Source: Escherichia coli
GTDB lineage: Bacteria; Pseudomonadota; Gammaproteobacteria; Enterobacterales; Enterobacteriaceae
NCBI RefSeq assembly: GCF_003790525.1
Contig: NZ_CP033636.1
Length of the DNA stretch: 64,000 nucleotides
Direction: 5' to 3' (one strand)
The translations under genes were made by a program, and so were the position numbers. Below the pieces are notes generated by a model. The model did not search any database, was not told the DNA's origin, and saw only the letters and a program-made list of their open reading frames with translations. How positions within the stretch are numbered: the first letter of the stretch is position 1; each line of letters begins with the position of its first letter. This document shows positions 7,984-64,000 of this stretch, one piece after another.

Positions 7984-8774
7984 TATTTGCCGATTACCTT
8001 GGTGATCTCGCCTTTCACGTAGTGGACAAATTCTTCCAACTGATCTGCGCGCGAGGCCAAGCGATCTTCTTCTTGTCCAAGATAAGCCTGTCTAGCTTCA
8101 AGTATGACGGGCTGATACTGGGCCGGCAGGCGCTCCATTGCCCAGTCGGCAGCGACATCCTTCGGCGCGATTTTGCCGGTTACTGCGCTGTACCAAATGC
8201 GGGACAACGTAAGCACTACATTTCGCTCATCGCCAGCCCAGTCGGGCGGCGAGTTCCATAGCGTTAAGGTTTCATTTAGCGCCTCAAATAGATCCTGTTC
8301 AGGAACCGGATCAAAGAGTTCCTCCGCCGCTGGACCTACCAAGGCAACGCTATGTTCTCTTGCTTTTGTCAGCAAGATAGCCAGATCAATGTCGATCGTG
8401 GCTGGCTCGAAGATACCTGCAAGAATGTCATTGCGCTGCCATTCTCCAAATTGCAGTTCGCGCTTAGCTGGATAACGCCACGGAATGATGTCGTCGTGCA
8501 CAACAATGGTGACTTCTACAGCGCGGAGAATCTCGCTCTCTCCAGGGGAAGCCGAAGTTTCCAAAAGGTCGTTGATCAAAGCTCGCCGCGTTGTTTCATC
8601 AAGCCTTACGGTCACCGTAACCAGCAAATCAATATCGCTGTATGGCTTCAGGCCGCCATCCACTGCGGAGCCGTACAAATGCACGGCCAGCAACGTTGAT
8701 TCCAGATGGCGCTCAATGACGCTTAGCACCTCTGATAGTTGGTTCGAAATTTCGATGGTCACCGCTACCCTCAT
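7983..8774 (-). CDS. aadA2: aminoglycoside (3'') adenylyltransferase AadA2 (streptomycin/spectinomycin), cassette 1 of integron 1
   Basis: MRVAVTIEISNQLSEVLSVIERHLESTLLAVHLYGSAVDGGLKPYSDIDLLVTVTVRLDE...; start chosen at internal ATG of longer ORF that reads through attI1. Confidence 0.9.
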   Translation of the reverse strand: MRVAVTIEISNQLSEVLSVIERHLESTLLAVHLYGSAVDGGLKPYSDIDLLVTVTVRLDETTRRALINDLLETSASPGESEILRAVEVTIVVHDDIIPWRYPAKRELQFGEWQRNDILAGIFEPATIDIDLAILLTKAREHSVALVGPAAEELFDPVPEQDLFEALNETLTLWNSPPDWAGDERNVVLTLSRIWYSAVTGKIAPKDVAADWAMERLPAQYQPVILEARQAYLGQEEDRLASRADQLEEFVHYVKGEITKVIGK

Positions 8775-15630: not shown

Positions 15631-16450
15631 GGCACTGTTGCAAATAGTCGGTGGTGATAAACTTATCATCCCCTTTTGCTGATGGAGCTGCACATGAACC
15701 CATTCAAAGGCCGGCATTTTCAGCGTGACATCATTCTGTGGGCCGTACGCTGGTACTGCAAATACGGCATCAGTTACCGTGAGCTGCAGGAGATGCTGGC
15801 TGAACGCGGAGTGAATGTCGATCACTCCACGATTTACCGCTGGGTTCAGCGTTATGCGCCTGAAATGGAAAAACGGCTGCGCTGGTACTGGCGTAACCCT
15901 TCCGATCTTTGCCCGTGGCACATGGATGAAACCTACGTGAAGGTCAATGGCCGCTGGGCGTATCTGTACCGGGCCGTCGACAGCCGGGGCCGCACTGTCG
16001 ATTTTTATCTCTCCTCCCGTCGTAACAGCAAAGCTGCATACCGGTTTCTGGGTAAAATCCTCAACAACGTGAAGAAGTGGCAGATCCCACGATTCATCAA
16101 CACGGATAAAGCGCCCGCCTATGGTCGCGCGCTTGCTCTGCTCAAACGCGAAGGCCGGTGCCCGTCTGACGTTGAACACCGACAGATTAAGTACCGGAAC
16201 AACGTGATTGAATGCGATCATGGCAAACTGAAACGGATAATCAACGCCACGCTGGGATTTAAATCCATGAAGACGGCTTACGCCACCATCAAAGGTATTG
16301 AGGTGATGCGTGCACTACGCAAAGGCCAGGCCTCAGCATTTTATTATGGTGATCCCCTGGGCGAAATGCGCCTGGTAAGCAGAGTTTTTGAAATGTAAGG
16401 CCTTTGAATAAGACAAAAGGCTGCCTCATCGCTAACTTTGCAACAGTGCC
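15631..16450 (+). mobile_element. IS26 copy 4 (820 bp), G184N variant type, flanked by 8-bp direct repeat CTTCTGGT
   Basis: Exact IS26 IRs; 15623-15630 and 16451-16458 both CTTCTGGT (target site duplication of a simple insertion). Confidence 0.95.
15694..16398 (+). CDS. tnpA: IS26 transposase, G184N variant
   Basis: ...[15 protein letters not shown]... Confidence 0.9.
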   Translation: MNPFKGRHFQRDIILWAVRWYCKYGISYRELQEMLAERGVNVDHSTIYRWVQRYAPEMEKRLRWYWRNPSDLCPWHMDETYVKVNGRWAYLYRAVDSRGRTVDFYLSSRRNSKAAYRFLGKILNNVKKWQIPRFINTDKAPAYGRALALLKREGRCPSDVEHRQIKYRNNVIECDHGKLKRIINATLGFKSMKTAYATIKGIEVMRALRKGQASAFYYGDPLGEMRLVSRVFEM

Positions 16451-32126: not shown

Positions 32127-33942
32127 GTTTTCCGGGCATCCGTAAGGGCCGAAACTTCCCGTCTTCCAGTCTGCGGCTCTGCCGCCAGACGTAATCGCCG
32201 GTTAGGTTGATGTGCTCCCAGCCCAGCGGCGACAGGAATTGCAGCAGCTCGCCGTCCACCGGCTTGCCGGCCTCGACCAACCCCTGGGTGGCGCGTTCCA
32301 GGTACACCGTGTTCCACAGCACGATAGCCGCCGTCACCAGGTTGAGGCCGCTGGCCCGGTAGCGCTGCTGCTCGAAGCTCCGATCCCTGATTTCCCCAAG
32401 GCGGTTGAAGAACACCGCCCTGGCCAGCGAGTTGCGCGCCTCACCTTTGTTCAGGCCGGCATGCACGCGGCGGCGCAGTTCAACACTTTGCAGCCAGTCC
32501 AGGATGAACAGCGTGCGCTCGATCCGGCCCAGCTCGCGCAGGGCCACGGCCAGTCCGTTCTGGCGCGGGTAGCTGCCGAGCTTGCGCAGCATCAGCGAGG
32601 CGGTGACGGTGCCCTGCTTGATCGAGCTGGCCAGGCGCAGGATGTCGTCCCAGTGGGCACGCACGTGCTTGATGTTCAGGGTGCCGCCGATCAGCGGGCG
32701 CAACGTCGGGTAGGCTTGCACGCCCTGCGGCACGTACAGCTTGGTTTCGCCGAGGTCGCGGATGCGCGGCGCGAAGCGGAAGCCTAGCAGGTGCATCAGG
32801 GCAAAGACGTGATCGGTGAAGCCGGCCGTGTCGGTGTAGTGCTCCTCGATCCGCAGGTCGGACTCGTGGTACAGCAGGCCGTCGAGCACATAGGTGGAAT
32901 CGCGGACGCCGACATTCACCACGCGGGTGCTGAACGGCGCGTACTGGTCGGAGATATGGGTATAGAACAGCCGTCCCGGCTCGCTACCGTACTTCGGGTT
33001 GACGTGCCCGGTGCTCTCGCCCCGGCCACCCGCGCGGAAGCGCTGGCCATCGGAGGATGAGGTCGTGCCGTCGCCCCAGTGGGCGGCAAAGGCGTGGCGA
33101 TACTGGTGGTTGACCAGCTCGGCCAAGGCCGCCGAATAGGTTTCGTCGCGGATGTGCCAGGCTTGCAGCCAGGACAGCTTGGCGTAGGTCAGGCCGGGGC
33201 TCGACTCGGCCATCTTGGTCAGCCCGAGGTTGATCGCATCACCGAGGATTGCGGACAGCAGCAACGTCCTGTCTTTGGCCTCGGCCCCGTCCTTCAAGTG
33301 GGTGAAGTGGCGGCTGAAGCCCGTCCAGTCGTCCACGTCCATCAGCAGTTCGGTGATCTTGATGCGCGGCAGTAACTGGCTGGTTTGGTCGATCAGCGCC
33401 TGCGCCCGATCCGGCACCGCCGCATCCAGCGGGGTGATTTTCAGCCCTGACTCGGTGAGGATGGCATCGGGCAGCTCGTTGTCCTTGGCCAGGCGGGTGA
33501 CGGTGGCCAACTGCTCGTCCAGCAGCTGCAAACGCTCTTCCAGGTACTGGTCGCTGTTCGGGTTGATCGCCAGGGGCAGGGCCTGCTCGCGCTTGAGTGC
33601 GGCGAACTTCTCGGCCGGCAGCAGGTAGTCGTCGAAGTCGCGGAACTGCCGCGAGCCCTTGACCCAGATGTCGCCGGAGCGCAGGGCGTTCTTCAGCTCG
33701 GACAGGGCGCAGATTTCGTAGAATTTCCGGTCGAGGCCTTCCGGGGTGATCACCAGCGGCTTCCAGCGCGGCTTGATGAAGGCCGTGGGTGCATCGGCCG
33801 GCACCTTGCGCAGGTTGTCGGCGTTCATCTCACGCAGGGTCTGCACGGCTGCCAGCACGCCTTGCGCGGCCGGCCCGTGCTGTTCCCCAACTTTTCGCTC
33901 GGCGAAGAGTATGAACATGCGCCGCCGGCGACGAATCGCCAA
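32122..33942 (-). pseudogene. tnpA: Tn1721 truncated transposase gene (tnpA', C-terminal ~585 codons)
   Basis: ...[74 protein letters not shown]... to ...[36 protein letters not shown]; N-terminal half absent. Confidence 0.85.
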
Positions 33943-40908: not shown

Positions 40909-40928
40909 CCACATTTTTGCAACAGTGC
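40909..40928 (+). repeat. orphan IS6-family (IS26-like) terminal repeat
   Basis: CACATTTTTGCAACAGTGCC, ending in the exact 14-bp IS26 IR TTTGCAACAGTGCC with diverged subterminal sequence; no adjacent IS body. Confidence 0.4.
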
Positions 40929-41176
40929 CTTATAAATGGCAGCCTTATGTTTACTTGCCAAGATGGGCTACCATATGATGTTTTATACTGAGCAATATTA
41001 ATATTATCTTTAATGGAAAAATTAAGCCCACTAAGTGACCCACTGCTATATGGCTCTATTGTGAAGACGCCTGAGGGTAAAAATTTATACATGGTTGTCC
41101 CTATGTCTATTATTGCAAGGTTGACAATATTATTCGTTTTATAAATTTGAGCGTTTAAAATCACACATCAAAGCAA

Positions 41177-55547: not shown

Positions 55548-56366
55548 GGCACTGTTGCAAATAACCACGAATGGTAAGCTGAAGACTGTTTTAGCTAAAG
55601 GTGCAGCATATGAATCCTTTCCATGGTCGGCATTTTCAGGGCGAAATCATTCTTTGGGCTGTGCGCTGGTATTGTAAATATGGCATTAGCTATCGTGAAC
55701 TGCAGGAAATGCTGGCCGAACGGGGTGTGAATGTTGATCACACGACTATTTACCGTTGGGTTCAACGTTATGCTCCTGAAATAGAAAAACGTTTACGCTG
55801 GTATTGGCGTAATCCTACAGATCTGAGCTCGTGGCATATTGATGAAACCTATGTAAAAGTGAATGGACGATGGTCTTATCTGTATCGTGCAGTCGATCAA
55901 CGTGGCGATACCATTGATTTTTATCTTTCTTCTAGACGTAATACCAAATCAGCATATTGTTTTCTTGGAAAAATTTTAAATAATGTGAAGAAGTGGCAAA
56001 TTCCACAAGTGATCAACACGGATAAAGCACCCACATATGGACGTGCTTTATCACGGTTAAAACGGGAAGGTAAATGTCCACCAGACCTTGAGCACAGGCA
56101 GATTAAGTATAAAAATAACGTGATTGAATGTGATCATGGCAAGCTAAAGCGGATCATCAGGGCCACATTAGGATTCAAATCTATGAAGACGGCTTATGCC
56201 ACAATTAAAGGTATTGAAGTCATGCGTGCACTACGTAAAGGACAAGCATCGTCATTTTATTATGGTCAGCCTCAGGGTGAAGTGTGTCTAATCAACAGGG
56301 TTTTCGGTCTCTAAGTACTTTTTAAAGGGAACATCATCGACTCAAATCTCTATTTGCAACAGTGCC
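55548..56366 (+). mobile_element. IS6-family element, IS1006/IS1008-like (819 bp), sharing the IS26 14-bp terminal repeat
   Basis: Ends GGCACTGTTGCAAATAACC... / ...TTTGCAACAGTGCC; internal sequence and transposase clearly diverged from IS26. Confidence 0.8.
55610..56314 (+). CDS. tnpA: IS1006-like transposase (IS6 family)
   Basis: [105 protein letters not shown]... Confidence 0.85.
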   Translation: MNPFHGRHFQGEIILWAVRWYCKYGISYRELQEMLAERGVNVDHTTIYRWVQRYAPEIEKRLRWYWRNPTDLSSWHIDETYVKVNGRWSYLYRAVDQRGDTIDFYLSSRRNTKSAYCFLGKILNNVKKWQIPQVINTDKAPTYGRALSRLKREGKCPPDLEHRQIKYKNNVIECDHGKLKRIIRATLGFKSMKTAYATIKGIEVMRALRKGQASSFYYGQPQGEVCLINRVFGL

Positions 56367-58135: not shown

Positions 58136-61087
58136 CTAAGCCGGTTGCAGAGGCCGTAGCGGCCTGAACTTCCCCGCGCCGATCTTGGCGCTGCTGCGCC
58201 ATAGGTAATCACCGGTCAGGTTGATGTGCTCCCAGCCGAGTGGCGACAGGTACTGCAATAGCGAGTCATCGACGGCATGACCATTGCCGCGCAACGCATG
58301 CGCCGCACGCTCCAGGTAGACCGTGTTCCACAGCACGATGGCCGCCGTCACCAGGTTGAGGCCGCTGGCCCGGTAGCGCTGCTGCTCGAAACTGCGGTCA
58401 CGGATTTCACCAAGGCGGTTGAAGAACACGGCACGGGCCAGCGCATTGCGCGCCTCGCCCTTGTTCAGCCCGGCATGCACGCGGCGGCGTAGCTCGACGC
58501 TTTGCAGCCAGTCGAGGATGAACAGCGTGCGCTCGATGCGGCCCAACTCGCGCAGCGCGACGGCCAAGCCGTTCTGGCGCGGGTAGCTGCCGAGTTTCCT
58601 GAGCATCAGCGAGGCCGTCACCGTGCCCTGCTTGATCGAGGTGGCCAGCCGCAGGATTTCGTCCCAATGGGCGCGGACGTGCTTGATGTTGAGCGTGCCG
58701 CCGATCATCGGCTTGAGCGCGTCATAGGCGGCATCGCCCTTCGGGATGTAGAGCTTGGTGTCGCCCAGGTCGCGGATGCGCGGCGCGAAGCGGAAGCCCA
58801 AGAGGTGCATCAGGGCGAAGACGTGATCGGTGAAGCCCGCCGTGTCGGTGTAGTGCTCCTCGATCCGCAGGTCGGATTCGTGGTACAGCAGGCCGTCGAG
58901 CACGTAGGTTGAGTCGCGCAGGCCGACATTGACCACCTTGGTGTGGAATGGCGCGTATTGGTCGGAGATGTGGGTGTAGAAAGTCCGTCCTGGGCTGCTG
59001 CCATATTTTGGGTTGATGTGCCCCGTGCTCTTTGCCTTGCTAGCGGTTCGGAAATTCTGTCCGTCCGATGATGATGTGGTGCCATCGCCCCAGTGCCCGG
59101 CAAAGGGATGCCGAAACTGAGCGTTGACCAGTTCAGCCAACGCTGTCGAGTACGTTTCGTCGCGGGTATGCCAGGCTTGCAGCCAAGCGAGCTTCGCGTA
59201 GGTCGTGCCGGGGCAGGACTCGGCCATCTTGGTCAGGCCCAGGTTGATCGCGTCGGCCAGGATCGTGGTCAACAACAGGTTCTTGTCCTTGGCCAGATCG
59301 CCCGATTTCAAGTGCGTGAAGTGCCGGGTGAAGCCCGTCCACTCATCGACTTCGAGCAGCAGTTCGGTGATCTTGACGTGCGGCAGGACCATGGCTGTCT
59401 GGTCTATCAGCGCCTGCGCGGTGTCGGGCACCGCCGCATCCAGCGGCGTGATCTTCAAGCCCGACTCGGTGATGATGGCATCCGGCAGGTCGTTGGCTGC
59501 CGCCATGCGGTTGACGGTGGCAAGTTGTGCTTCCAGCAGCGTCAGCCGCTCATGCAGATATTGTTCGCAGTCGGTGGCCACGGCCAGCGGCAATTCGCTG
59601 GACTGCTTGAGGCTGGTGAACTTCTCGGGCGGTACCAGGTAGTCCTCGAAGTCCTTGAACTGGCGTGAACCCTGCACCCAGATGTCGCCCGAGCGCAGGG
59701 AGTTCTTCAACTCGGACAGCGCGCACAGTTCGTAGTAGCGCCGGTCGATGCCGGCGTCGGTCATCACCAGTTTCTGCCAGCGCGGCTTGATGAAGCCGGT
59801 CGGTGCATCGGCTGGCAGCTTGCGGGCGTTGTCGGTGTTCATGCCGCGCAGCACCTCAATGGCATCAAGCACGTTTTTGGCGGCGGGCGCGGCCCGCAGC
59901 TTGAGCACGGCAAGGAATTCCGGTGCATAGCGGCGCAGGGTGGCGTAGCTCTCGCCGATGCGATGCAGGAAATCGAAGTCATCGGGTTGCGCGAGCTTCT
60001 GCGCCTCGGTGACGCTCTCGGCAAAGGAATCCCAGGACATGACGGCCTCGATGGCGGCAAACGCATCGCGGCCTGATTGCTTGGCGTCGATCAGCGCCTG
60101 ACCGATGCGCCCGTACAGACGTACCTTGGCGTTGATGGCCTTGCCTGACGCCTGGAACTGCTGCTGATGCTTATTCTTGGCAGCGTTAAACAGCTTACCC
60201 AGGATGCGGTCGTGCAGGTCGATGATTTCGTCGGTGACGGTGGCCAGCGCCACGAGAGTGGCGTAGCGCCGTTGCGGCTCGAATTTGGCCAGGTCGGCGG
60301 GTGTCATCTGGCCGCCCTCGCGGGCAATCTTGAGCAGGCGGTTCTGGTGAACCAGCCGCTCGATGCCGGTAGGCAGATCGAGTGCCTGCCATGCCTTGAG
60401 GCGTTCGATGTGTTCCAGCATATGCCGCGAATTTGGCTTGGCCGGAGACTGGCGCAACCAAGCCAACCAGGTCGTCTTGCCGTTGTCCCGGCGCTTGAGC
60501 AGATCGTCGAGGCGGCGGCGATGCGCGTCCGCCAGTGGTTCGGCCAAGGCGTCGTAGATGCGCCGGTTAGCACGGGTGATCGCCTCGGCACTCGCCCGCT
60601 CGACGGCGTTGAGGGCGGGCAGAATGACCGACTGCCGCCGCAGGTGCCCGATCAAGGCGCTGGCCAGCACGATGCCTTTGTCGGTTTGCATCGCCAGCTC
60701 GGTCAGCATCTGGACGGCCTGCCGGTAATGGCTCATGGTGAAGGGCCGGAAACCGAACACGGTTTGCAGCTCGCTCAGGTGCTCGCGCCGGGTCTGCTCC
60801 CGCTGGCCGTACTCGTTCCAGCTTTCGACGCCGACCTTGAGCTGGTCGGCGACCAGCTTCAACAAGGGCGGGAACGGTAGTTCATCGACGCCCAGGATGA
60901 CGCCGGGAAAGCGCAGGTAACAGAGCTGCACCGCGAAGCCCAGCCGATTGGCTGGCCCGCGCCGCTGTCGGATGATCGAGAGGTCGGTATCGTTGAATGT
61001 GTAATGTCGGATCAGGTCGTCCTTGGAGTCCGGCAACGCCAGCAGGCTTTCCCGCTCGGCGGCGGACAGGATGGAACGACGTGGCAT
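58136..61087 (-). CDS. tnpA: Tn21-family transposase TnpA
   Basis: 983-aa [66 protein letters not shown]...; stop within IRtnp. Confidence 0.9.
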
Positions 61088-61089
61088 AT

Positions 61090-61502
61090 TTACTGATCCG
61101 TTCTCAAGTATTGATACAGGGTTTCGCGACTGATTCCGAATTCACGAGCAAGCTTGGTCTTTTGCTCGCCAGCCTCGACACGTTGGCGCAGTTCGGCAAT
61201 ACGCTCAGACGACAGGGATTTCTTCCTGCCACGGTAAGCCCCGCGTTGCTTGGCGAGCGCAATACCCTCGCGCTGACGCTCGCGGATCAGGGCGCGCTCG
61301 AACTCGGCGAACGCGCCCATCACCGAGAGCATCAGGTTCGCCATCGGAGAGTCTTCGCCAGTAAAACTGAGGTGTTCCTTGACGAATTCGATATGCACGC
61401 CGCGTTGTGTCAGCGTTTGCACGATCCGGCGCAAATCATCGAGATTGCGCGCCAGGCGATCCATGCTATGCACCACCACGGTGTCGCCGGTGCGGGCGAA
61501 GC
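61090..61502 (-). pseudogene. tnpR: Tn21-family resolvase tnpR, 5'-truncated by IS26
   Basis: ...FARTGDTVVVHSMDRLARNLDDLRRIVQTLTQRGVHIEFVKEHLSFTGEDSPMANLMLSVMGAFAEFERALIRERQREGIALAKQRG...YLRTDQ. Confidence 0.85.
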
Positions 61503-62322
61503 GGCACTGTTGCAAATAGTCGGTGGTGATAAACTTATCATCCCCTTTTGCTGATGGAGCTGCACATGAACCCATTCAAAGGCCGGCATTTTCAGCGTGA
61601 CATCATTCTGTGGGCCGTACGCTGGTACTGCAAATACGGCATCAGTTACCGTGAGCTGCAGGAGATGCTGGCTGAACGCGGAGTGAATGTCGATCACTCC
61701 ACGATTTACCGCTGGGTTCAGCGTTATGCGCCTGAAATGGAAAAACGGCTGCGCTGGTACTGGCGTAACCCTTCCGATCTTTGCCCGTGGCACATGGATG
61801 AAACCTACGTGAAGGTCAATGGCCGCTGGGCGTATCTGTACCGGGCCGTCGACAGCCGGGGCCGCACTGTCGATTTTTATCTCTCCTCCCGTCGTAACAG
61901 CAAAGCTGCATACCGGTTTCTGGGTAAAATCCTCAACAACGTGAAGAAGTGGCAGATCCCACGATTCATCAACACGGATAAAGCGCCCGCCTATGGTCGC
62001 GCGCTTGCTCTGCTCAAACGCGAAGGCCGGTGCCCGTCTGACGTTGAACACCGACAGATTAAGTACCGGAACAACGTGATTGAATGCGATCATGGCAAAC
62101 TGAAACGGATAATCAACGCCACGCTGGGATTTAAATCCATGAAGACGGCTTACGCCACCATCAAAGGTATTGAGGTGATGCGTGCACTACGCAAAGGCCA
62201 GGCCTCAGCATTTTATTATGGTGATCCCCTGGGCGAAATGCGCCTGGTAAGCAGAGTTTTTGAAATGTAAGGCCTTTGAATAAGACAAAAGGCTGCCTCA
62301 TCGCTAACTTTGCAACAGTGCC
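61503..62322 (+). mobile_element. IS26 copy 7 (820 bp), G184N variant type
   Basis: Exact IS26 IRs; flanks ggcgaagc / aatcttcc. Confidence 0.95.
61566..62270 (+). CDS. tnpA: IS26 transposase, G184N variant
   Basis: ...[15 protein letters not shown]... Confidence 0.9.
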   Translation: MNPFKGRHFQRDIILWAVRWYCKYGISYRELQEMLAERGVNVDHSTIYRWVQRYAPEMEKRLRWYWRNPSDLCPWHMDETYVKVNGRWAYLYRAVDSRGRTVDFYLSSRRNSKAAYRFLGKILNNVKKWQIPRFINTDKAPAYGRALALLKREGRCPSDVEHRQIKYRNNVIECDHGKLKRIINATLGFKSMKTAYATIKGIEVMRALRKGQASAFYYGDPLGEMRLVSRVFEM

Positions 62323-62580
62323 AATCTTCCCGCCTTTACCATCGAAAGCGATAAACCAGAAATCGTCCGTGCCAGTTTCAAGATTTCTGCAACGTTTCAG
62401 ATGCCATCCGCCTTCTCTCGCCCAGATGGTACGGTTATTTCTGGCATTCGTTTTGTCATACCCGTGCTCGTCAAGCCAGCTATCAAAGCTGGTCAGCCCC
62501 AGGTCCTGAACCTCCAGAGAAGGTACACGAATGACCTGCAAGGTATGGCGTGGTCTTGGCTCTCTCATCTTGATCTCTTC

Positions 62581-62991
62581 CTAGCGCTGGTCTGGGAAAT
62601 ACGGATATTGCGGGCCATATTCATAATCATGCGGGCCTGGCTCAACTTCCCAGAATGGACGGCCGCTAATTGTCTTTGGACCGCGCTCGTTTACGATGTC
62701 TTCTACATCCTGAATATTAAATGGCATCGTTGCCAGTAACAGCTGATCTTCGGGTGTCAGCGTCACAGTTGCACCGTCGATACGGCTGTAAAGGTCGGCA
62801 AACTGTTTACCTGCACCGTGCAACCGGTGCTCCGCTACACTTCTGATTGCGTGTAAGTCCAGCTCCGCCGCTTCCATGCGATCCACGTATAGTTTCATTT
62901 CTTTACGCAAAGCGCTCAGCTCACGGGTTTTAATAAATCCGTAGGCGTACCCACCCAGGGCGATAACTGCAATGATTGCTAAAATAGCCAT
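62581..62991 (-). CDS. hypothetical protein (136 aa) with N-terminal membrane anchor
   Basis: MAILAIIAVIALGGYAYGFIKTRELSALRKEMKLYVDRMEAAELDLHAIR...; single N-terminal TM then helical region. Confidence 0.4.
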   Translation of the reverse strand: MAILAIIAVIALGGYAYGFIKTRELSALRKEMKLYVDRMEAAELDLHAIRSVAEHRLHGAGKQFADLYSRIDGATVTLTPEDQLLLATMPFNIQDVEDIVNERGPKTISGRPFWEVEPGPHDYEYGPQYPYFPDQR

Positions 62992-63092
62992 TTATTTTCT
63001 CTTACGTTACTGCGGCCGCCGCTTTAGTCTTAATGTGAAGCCTGGGAATTCGCTGAATGAAGAATACGTTTTCACCCCCAGGCCGACAGCTG

Positions 63093-63299
63093 TTAAGGCG
63101 CGATCCCAACACTCCATTTGTAAGTATCAGGCCCATCTTCTCCGCTGGTGGCATCAGCTACAATCTGTGCATAACGTTCTCCAGCAAGTTCTCTTACCAT
63201 CTGATCCACGACCCATTGCAGATGATGCATTTCATCGGTTCCGCCGTAACGACAAGCCAACTCAATAGCCCGCTCTATTCTTTTTTGTTCTTCAGTCAT
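63093..63299 (-). CDS. small hypothetical protein (68 aa)
   Basis: ORF only. Confidence 0.3.
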   Translation of the reverse strand: MTEEQKRIERAIELACRYGGTDEMHHLQWVVDQMVRELAGERYAQIVADATSGEDGPDTYKWSVGIAP

Positions 63300-63359
63300 A
63301 CTGAATCCTCACGCTTACATCAGCTATTCTGAAAACATGCACACTATAAATTGCGGCTG

Positions 63360-64000
63360 TCATTTCTCAGCCAGGCGCCTGCATTGCTGCCTCATTCCAT
63401 CAAAAATACTTTCCGCAAGCTGCTGGGGGAACTGGTCCGGAAGAAGCCCGCTAACACGTTCAATGACACCTGGGGTTCTGGCGATGATTTCCTCTATCAT
63501 CGCCTCTGTCTGCTGTTTACTCAGGCCGGTTATCTCACCATGCCTGATCCAGTGGCGTCGTTGTATTCGATATATCTGGTAATAGTTGCTACTGCCACGT
63601 ACGGCCATCGCCAATTTGCACTTCTGCCAGGATATCTGATTGTTCCCATGACCGATCACCGGCCATGCCGACAACACATCATAGTTTGGTGTAAGGTGAT
63701 AACGTCCCTGTGGCCCAATAGAAATACTGAAATTTTTAGCGTGGCCATCTGTTGCGGCCATCATCCAGAAAATTATCTGCGTCATAAAAAACTGCGCTTT
63801 GTCACGCTCAGCACGGTCTGAATTACTCAGAACCTCCATAATTTCCGATATACCTGGCCCGCCGTCCGCCTGATATTTTCGTAATGGCGAAACGCCCAGG
63901 GCCTGACACATATCCTCCTGGGGTAAACGAATGATCCATTGTCCGTCTCCTGACCATTTTCGGTCAAAACGTTCTACCACCAGCGCTTTCTGATCTTCAA
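63360..64000 (-). CDS. hipA: HipA-family serine/threonine kinase toxin, C-terminal part (gene continues beyond window)
   Basis: ...ERFDRKWSGDGQWIIRLPQEDMCQALGVSPLRKYQADGGPGISEIMEVL...ATDGHAKNFSISIGPQGRYHLTPNYDVLSAWPV... closely parallels E. coli HipA C-terminal kinase core including the DGHAKN motif; frame open to window edge. Confidence 0.75.
   Translation of the reverse strand, partial: EDQKALVVERFDRKWSGDGQWIIRLPQEDMCQALGVSPLRKYQADGGPGISEIMEVLSNSDRAERDKAQFFMTQIIFWMMAATDGHAKNFSISIGPQGRYHLTPNYDVLSAWPVIGHGNNQISWQKCKLAMAVRGSSNYYQIYRIQRRHWIRHGEITGLSKQQTEAMIEEIIARTPGVIERVSGLLPDQFPQQLAESIFDGMRQQCRRLAEK

Follow-up and report, generated by a model that had tools for sequence, protein, structure and literature searches.

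In Escherichia coli K-12, free HipA is a Ser/Thr kinase that phosphorylates GltX, whereupon growth halts. HipB acts at two levels, neutralising HipA and repressing the operon at repeated promoter palindromes, and is itself proteolytically labile. The HipA-family kinase core is common to this system, to HipBST (E. coli O127), to HipH/YjjJ, and to the HipA protein of IncHI2 plasmids considered here.

On IncHI2 plasmids, hipA and hipB have been named, at the level of annotation, among the maintenance and stability genes of the backbone (PMC4855149, PMC6617520, PMC6306219, PMC9019673). In a pangenome study, again at annotation level, hipBA marks a plasmid-bearing lineage of Salmonella (PMC11271444).

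The locus described here occupies the right flank (positions 62323-64000) of a 64,000-nucleotide stretch of DNA, the whole of which is called the window. This flank is, with high probability, backbone of an IncHI2 conjugative multiresistance plasmid, beginning at the end of an IS26-bounded resistance region. It carries the distal part of hipA from a classical hipBA type II module together with three unrelated neighbours, one of which, an HNH gene, has been inactivated by IS26. As such it is an already catalogued feature of a very common plasmid family.

Features of the flank

The ORF list and the sequence place all four coding features of the flank on the minus strand, beside a complete copy of IS26:

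61503..62322, plus strand: IS26, 820 bp, with the tnp26 ORF at 61566-62270 and 14-bp inverted repeats at both ends
62323..62568, minus strand: HNH endonuclease gene remnant, the first 82 codons of a 271-aa HNH_2-type gene
62581..62991, minus strand: orf136 (WP_000985911.1), a 136-aa ORF for a conserved hypothetical protein with a predicted N-terminal transmembrane helix
63093..63299, minus strand: orf68 (WP_000134171.1), a 68-aa ORF for a small conserved hypothetical protein
63360..64000, minus strand: 3' part of hipA, codons 230-441 of 441 plus the stop codon, encoding the kinase core of HipA_C
63678..63680, minus strand: Asp336 codon of hipA (in NYD), which aligns to K-12 HipA Asp332
63732..63749, minus strand: DGHAKN catalytic-loop motif in hipA, from sequence and alignment
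63747-63749, minus strand: Asp313 codon of hipA, which aligns to K-12 HipA Asp309

The hipA coding sequence in the window comprises 63360-63998, plus 2 nt up to position 64000. Successive gaps from hipA through orf68 and orf136 to the HNH gene are 60, 101, and 12 nt, the last separating the end of orf136 from the HNH start.

A preliminary description of the window had proposed much of this arrangement: the C-terminal kinase core of a HipA homologue at the right edge, then, on the same strand, a 68-aa ORF, a membrane-anchored 136-aa protein, and an 82-codon ORF cut by IS26. The details bear it out. The kinase core matches HipA_C and contains DGHAKN; the 68-aa ORF is present on the minus strand; residues 2-20 of the 136-aa protein are strongly hydrophobic (Kyte-Doolittle mean 2.23), which fits a transmembrane helix; and the 82-codon ORF begins with ATG at 62568 and runs to 62323, where it abuts the IS26 repeat at 62309-62322. 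Calling this IS26 "copy 7" holds if complete 820-bp copies only are counted, of which the window has seven. The phrase "HipA gene fragment" is right in that the gene is partial in the window, but there is no biological break: hipA is intact in relatives, so the truncation is an effect of the window edge alone.

The HipA kinase

The 212 HipA residues encoded in the window match Pfam HipA_C (PF07804) with E=9.2e-34 (117.4 bits, against a cut-off of 30.5), and the best sequence hits in PDB are to chains of E. coli HipA (E ~4e-43). They equal residues 230-441 of WP_000088046.1 with no differences. Codons 1-229 lie outside the window, and the N-terminal Couple_hipA domain (PF13657, 75.9 bits) was accordingly read from relatives with an identical C-terminal half; a full-length relative scores 174 bits on HipA_C. 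The IncHI2 protein thus read has both domains in 441 aa, much like K-12 HipA, which has the same two in 440 aa. Identity between the two is 41% over 425 aligned amino acids.

Three K-12 HipA residues serve as landmarks: the catalytic Asp (D309), the Mg-binding Asp (D332), and the P-loop Ser that is autophosphorylated (S150). All three are conserved. D313, in DGHAKN, corresponds to D309; D336, the Asp of the YD pair, corresponds to D332; and S156 of the full-length relatives (in RLSIAGAQEKT) aligns to S150. By homology with the K-12 enzyme, plasmid HipA is probably an active kinase. Its target, however, need not be GltX, given a mere 41% identity.

One relative differs at a residue covered by the window. 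HipA of plasmid pNDM33-1 (L013 6098-7423), the nearest of the colinear relatives, carries P277L, with A rather than G at the site matching window position 63856; the window HipA, unlike that of pNDM33-1, keeps the common Pro at 277. Identity with YjjJ/HipH was considered and rejected, as the score on the NCBIfam YjjJ equivalog model, 25 bits, falls far short of its cut-off, 401.

HipB and its candidate operators

Because hipB and the N-terminal half of HipA both fall outside the window, the integrity of hipBA in this molecule is assumed from its closest relatives. The preliminary description had suggested looking for hipB beyond position 64000. In every relative examined it is indeed there, a 97-aa HTH_3 gene ending 4 nt before the 441-aa hipA. 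Farther out, the relatives encode small hypothetical proteins and a vWA protein, and they carry the ter tellurite-resistance operon.

Across the HTH, IncHI2 HipB and K-12 HipB share 32% identity; the NCBIfam HipB equivalog model gives the plasmid protein 41.5 bits, under the cut-off of 79. Its annotated start deserves a remark. In relative L004 the RefSeq CDS begins (8661-8664) with an ATC codon. The preceding in-frame codon is ATG, has GAGG 8 nt ahead of it, and would yield a 98-aa protein; this ATG is the more plausible start, judged from these signals.

A search of the DNA upstream of L004 hipB for the K-12 HipB operator, TATCC-N8-GGATA, found no copy, even when 2 mismatches were tolerated. 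Operator sequence does not define the family, so this does not exclude membership of HipBA. Instead, within 150 bp upstream of hipB there are four palindromes of the form ACAGC-N6-GNTGT, spaced 27-28 bp apart (L004 8692-8790; L005 6689-6787). The pattern has 5 strand matches there, against 0.07 expected. A diverged IncHI2 lineage keeps the same half-sites, while its spacer bases vary and its DNA further upstream is unrelated. A promoter-like sequence, TTGATA-17-TATGTT, overlaps the palindromes. This layout is what autorepression by HipB and HipA would be expected to show, and the palindromes are candidate HipB operators. They are the sole mildly new observation of this analysis, and they lie outside the window.

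Placed side by side, the two modules share gene order (hipB b1508 then hipA b1507 in K-12), the conserved P-loop Ser and both Asp residues of the kinase, an HTH_3 HipB, and a promoter region with four spaced palindromes. They differ in several respects: identity is low for both proteins; hipB and hipA are separated by 4 nt in IncHI2, whereas the K-12 genes overlap; the candidate half-sites (ACAGC/GNTGT, with a 6-bp spacer) are unlike the K-12 operator; and the K-12 module is chromosomal, whereas that of IncHI2 is plasmid-borne.

Could these differences extend to function? IncHI2 HipB might work through an operator of its own, the four ACAGC-N6-GNTGT sites. The drug tolerance that hosts of IncHI2 plasmids (pHXY0908, for example) are reported to show might then owe something measurable to the kinase, perhaps acting on a target other than GltX. 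That IncHI2 HipBA is functionally distinct in this way is a tentative idea, which we regard as possible and rather doubtful.

Plasmid backbone and relatives

The 1,678 bp from 62323 to 64000 were used as a query against PLSDB. They match 1,160 plasmids. Identity is at least 99% for 690 of these, and hundreds of large conjugative plasmids agree with the flank at 99.9%; 976 of the matching plasmids are predicted to be conjugative, and the hosts are chiefly Escherichia, Salmonella, and Enterobacter. Each matching plasmid that was inspected (including pNDM33-1, pHNTH9F11-1, and pCombat11I9-1; R478 and pHXY0908 were considered via cited papers) types as IncHI2A / MOBH / MPF_F, and flank identity to the inspected IncHI2 relatives is 99.8-99.9%. 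No PLSDB plasmid matches the flank at 100%. (Position 63082, between orf68 and orf136, is G in the window; L001, L004, and L013, the three relatives aligned to it at single-base level, all have A.) The gene neighbourhood agrees as well: the window has the same neighbours, orf68, orf136, and HNH, as hipAB of the IncHI2 backbone, in which ter genes lie beyond hipB.

The initial proposal that the flank is plasmid backbone is therefore well founded, by the PLSDB matches and their IncHI2A typing, and the flank does not map predominantly to chromosomes. Among 5,426 complete E. coli genomes the segment is found at 289 places, 285 on plasmids and 4 on chromosomes. Those four places bear on another explanation, namely that an IncHI2-derived flank was integrated by IS26-mediated cointegration, making the toxin gene chromosomal in this isolate. 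Integrated IncHI2 plasmids with hipA and hipB have been described in Salmonella (PMC9019673), and the replicon cannot be read directly from the window; the IncHI2 assignment comes from near-identity and synteny with typed plasmids. Against integration stand the overwhelming share of plasmid locations and the colinearity of 49.2 kb of the window (14799-64000), at 99.96%, with the conjugative IncHI2A plasmid pNDM33-1 (NZ_CP076648.1). A chromosomal location is very unlikely.

Read as plasmid backbone, the flank ties the right-hand end of the IS26-rich resistance region to IncHI2 DNA and places the molecule in a pNDM33-1-like lineage with a common IS26|HNH junction.

The IS26|HNH junction

In IncHI2 relatives lacking this IS26, the HNH gene is intact and encodes 271 aa, with the HNH_2 domain (PF13391) at residues 176-222. 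The window retains residues 1-82 only, and a Pfam search of these finds no match. The reading frame continues into IS26 for 53 unrelated codons. RefSeq labels the truncated form in relatives a pseudogene, "missing C-terminus". The window gene is a remnant, not a functional member of its family.

The IS26 at 61503-62322, which carries the same annotation in relatives, lacks an 8-bp target-site duplication: the 8-mers that adjoin it are GGCGAAGC and AATCTTCC, and a search of the window for further occurrences of AATCTTCC or its complement found none. Also missing from the window are the remainder of the HNH gene and the 6 kb of backbone beyond it; neither is present in the 50 kb of pNDM33-1 beside the junction. 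This state of the flanks fits a history of IS26-mediated deletion, rearrangement, or cointegrate formation. The same junction is present in at least 50 PLSDB plasmids. Taken together, the lack of a target duplication, the missing sequence, and the number of plasmids sharing the junction indicate that it arose by IS26-mediated deletion or rearrangement and is now inherited in the plasmid lineage.

On the other side of this IS26, at 61090-61502, lies a Tn3-family resolvase gene whose 5' end has been lost to IS26. Relative to IS26 the segment is inverted in comparison with pHNTH9F11-1, though the IS26|HNH junction is common to both; this suggests either that IS26 mediated an inversion or that the resistance region was assembled differently.

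The neighbours orf68 and orf136

Neither small protein is matched above threshold in Pfam, NCBIfam, PADLOC, or PHROGs. The only matches, both weak, are DUF4272 for orf136 (E 0.072) and a PHROG of unknown function for orf68 (E 6e-4). Both have distant homologues, and these indicate that orf68 and orf136 are real conserved genes.

The orf68 family consists strictly of 68-aa proteins, found in Enterobacterales on diverse plasmids. Its invariant positions include H26, D32, Q33, R36, Y43, G53, G56, T59, and a C-terminal GIAP. The structural model is a helical hairpin (pLDDT 80), and a Foldseek search of this model against PDB gives no match at E<5.

In orf136, the N-terminal helix is followed by a long helix and a conserved C-terminal motif, VNERGPKTIxGRPFWEVEP...YEYGPQYP; the model has pLDDT 64, with a disordered C-terminus. 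Homologues that are 44-89% identical have the N-terminal membrane helix, an invariant RMEA..LDLH.IRSV, and a C-terminal (R)GP.TI.G.P.W..EP...YEY.P.Y. A substitution comparison of two IncHI2 lineages yields 2 changed codons in orf68 and 5 in orf136, too few to inform.

It is tempting to join these genes to the toxin. In such a scheme, orf68, orf136, and the HNH gene would form one functional unit with hipBA, as an extended operon or as a third component of the kind seen in HipBST. The four genes do share a strand and are separated by short gaps; the whole block is conserved across IncHI2 lineages; and a scan of the DNA 3' of hipA finds no convincing terminator. (Across the flank as a whole, promoter and terminator predictions are not above the counts in shuffled sequence.) The distribution of homologues points the other way. 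Relatives of orf68, at 37-75% identity, occur on non-IncHI2 plasmids among unrelated small genes with no hipA nearby. The two most divergent copies of orf136, at 44-62% identity, occur on an IncFII-type contig and a phage-like contig that both lack hipA and an HNH gene. Moreover, HipA is full length with its own N-terminal domain and so needs no HipS-like partner, and the HNH gene is broken in at least 50 plasmids that nonetheless persist. A common unit thus seems highly improbable. Rather, since homologues occur elsewhere without hipA, orf68 and orf136 are concluded, from these comparisons, to be independent accessory genes of unknown function, probably neighbours that lie outside the toxin module. 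(Identity of the module with HipBST itself was rejected: IncHI2 HipA is unsplit and full length, and there is no HipS-like gene.)

Addiction, persistence, or defence

A mechanism for the plasmid module can be outlined by homology. HipB, as an HTH protein, would neutralise HipA and repress the operon via the promoter palindromes. HipA freed from HipB would phosphorylate a translation factor (GltX in K-12) and stop growth. If the replicon were lost, the labile antitoxin would decay, leaving plasmid-free segregants growth-arrested; this is addiction. Drug tolerance might then be a side effect. The persistence or addiction role suggested for plasmid hipBA draws on 41% identity to K-12 HipA and on papers that treat the genes at annotation level; we infer likewise that plasmid HipB would be labile and that hipBA may stabilise its plasmid.

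A competing proposal gives hipBA a main role other than plasmid addiction, either in phage defence (abortive infection or an anti-phage kinase system) or in persistence of the host. HipA weakly matches the PADLOC candidate defence family PDC-M03A (E=4e-5), and HipB resembles HTH regulators of defence systems such as RmrA and CapH. The literature search also leaves room for this proposal: it returned annotation papers, with no functional experiment on IncHI2 HipBA and no plasmid-stability test. However, the PADLOC matches are weak and partial, and in architecture, domain content, and residues the module matches classical HipBA. Fixation of hipBA in the backbone of both IncHI2 lineages examined fits either role and is usual for maintenance genes. 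A principal role in defence or host persistence is thus unlikely, and plasmid addiction remains the favoured reading.

IncHI2 plasmids carry mcr, oqxAB, and NDM genes, so any stabilisation of the plasmid, or tolerance of the host, through hipBA would be of practical relevance.

Other IS6 and Tn3 elements in the window

The IS6-type inventory of the window comprises the seven complete 820-bp IS26 copies, one 819-bp IS1006-type relative, and one lone IS26 inverted repeat. The copy at 61503-62322 has all the marks of IS26: a length of 820 bp; the 14-bp terminal inverted repeats, GGCACTGTTGCAAA; and the Tnp26 ORF.

The copy at 15631-16450 is the only one with an 8-bp direct duplication, CTTCTGGT on both sides, which indicates a simple insertion. 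The remaining copies have no target duplications, as expected after IS26-mediated rearrangements. The lone repeat, at 40916-40929, has no partner 820 bp away and is a truncated IS26 end.

The 819-bp element at 55548-56366 has the exact 14-bp terminal repeats of IS26, yet it is a different element: compared position by position, it agrees with IS26 at a near-random level, and blastn detects no match between the two. Its 237-aa transposase is Tnp26-like by eye, and the element is annotated as "IS1006 family" in pNDM33-1.

Finally, the segments 32176-33837 and 58190-59851 each match, besides their own counterpart in pNDM33-1, the counterpart of the other, at ~81% identity. The second lies within a 983-aa Tn3-family transposase ORF (58136-61087). 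A pair of related Tn3-family transposase genes is suggested, with ~81% identity as seen via the pNDM33-1 counterparts rather than head-to-head.
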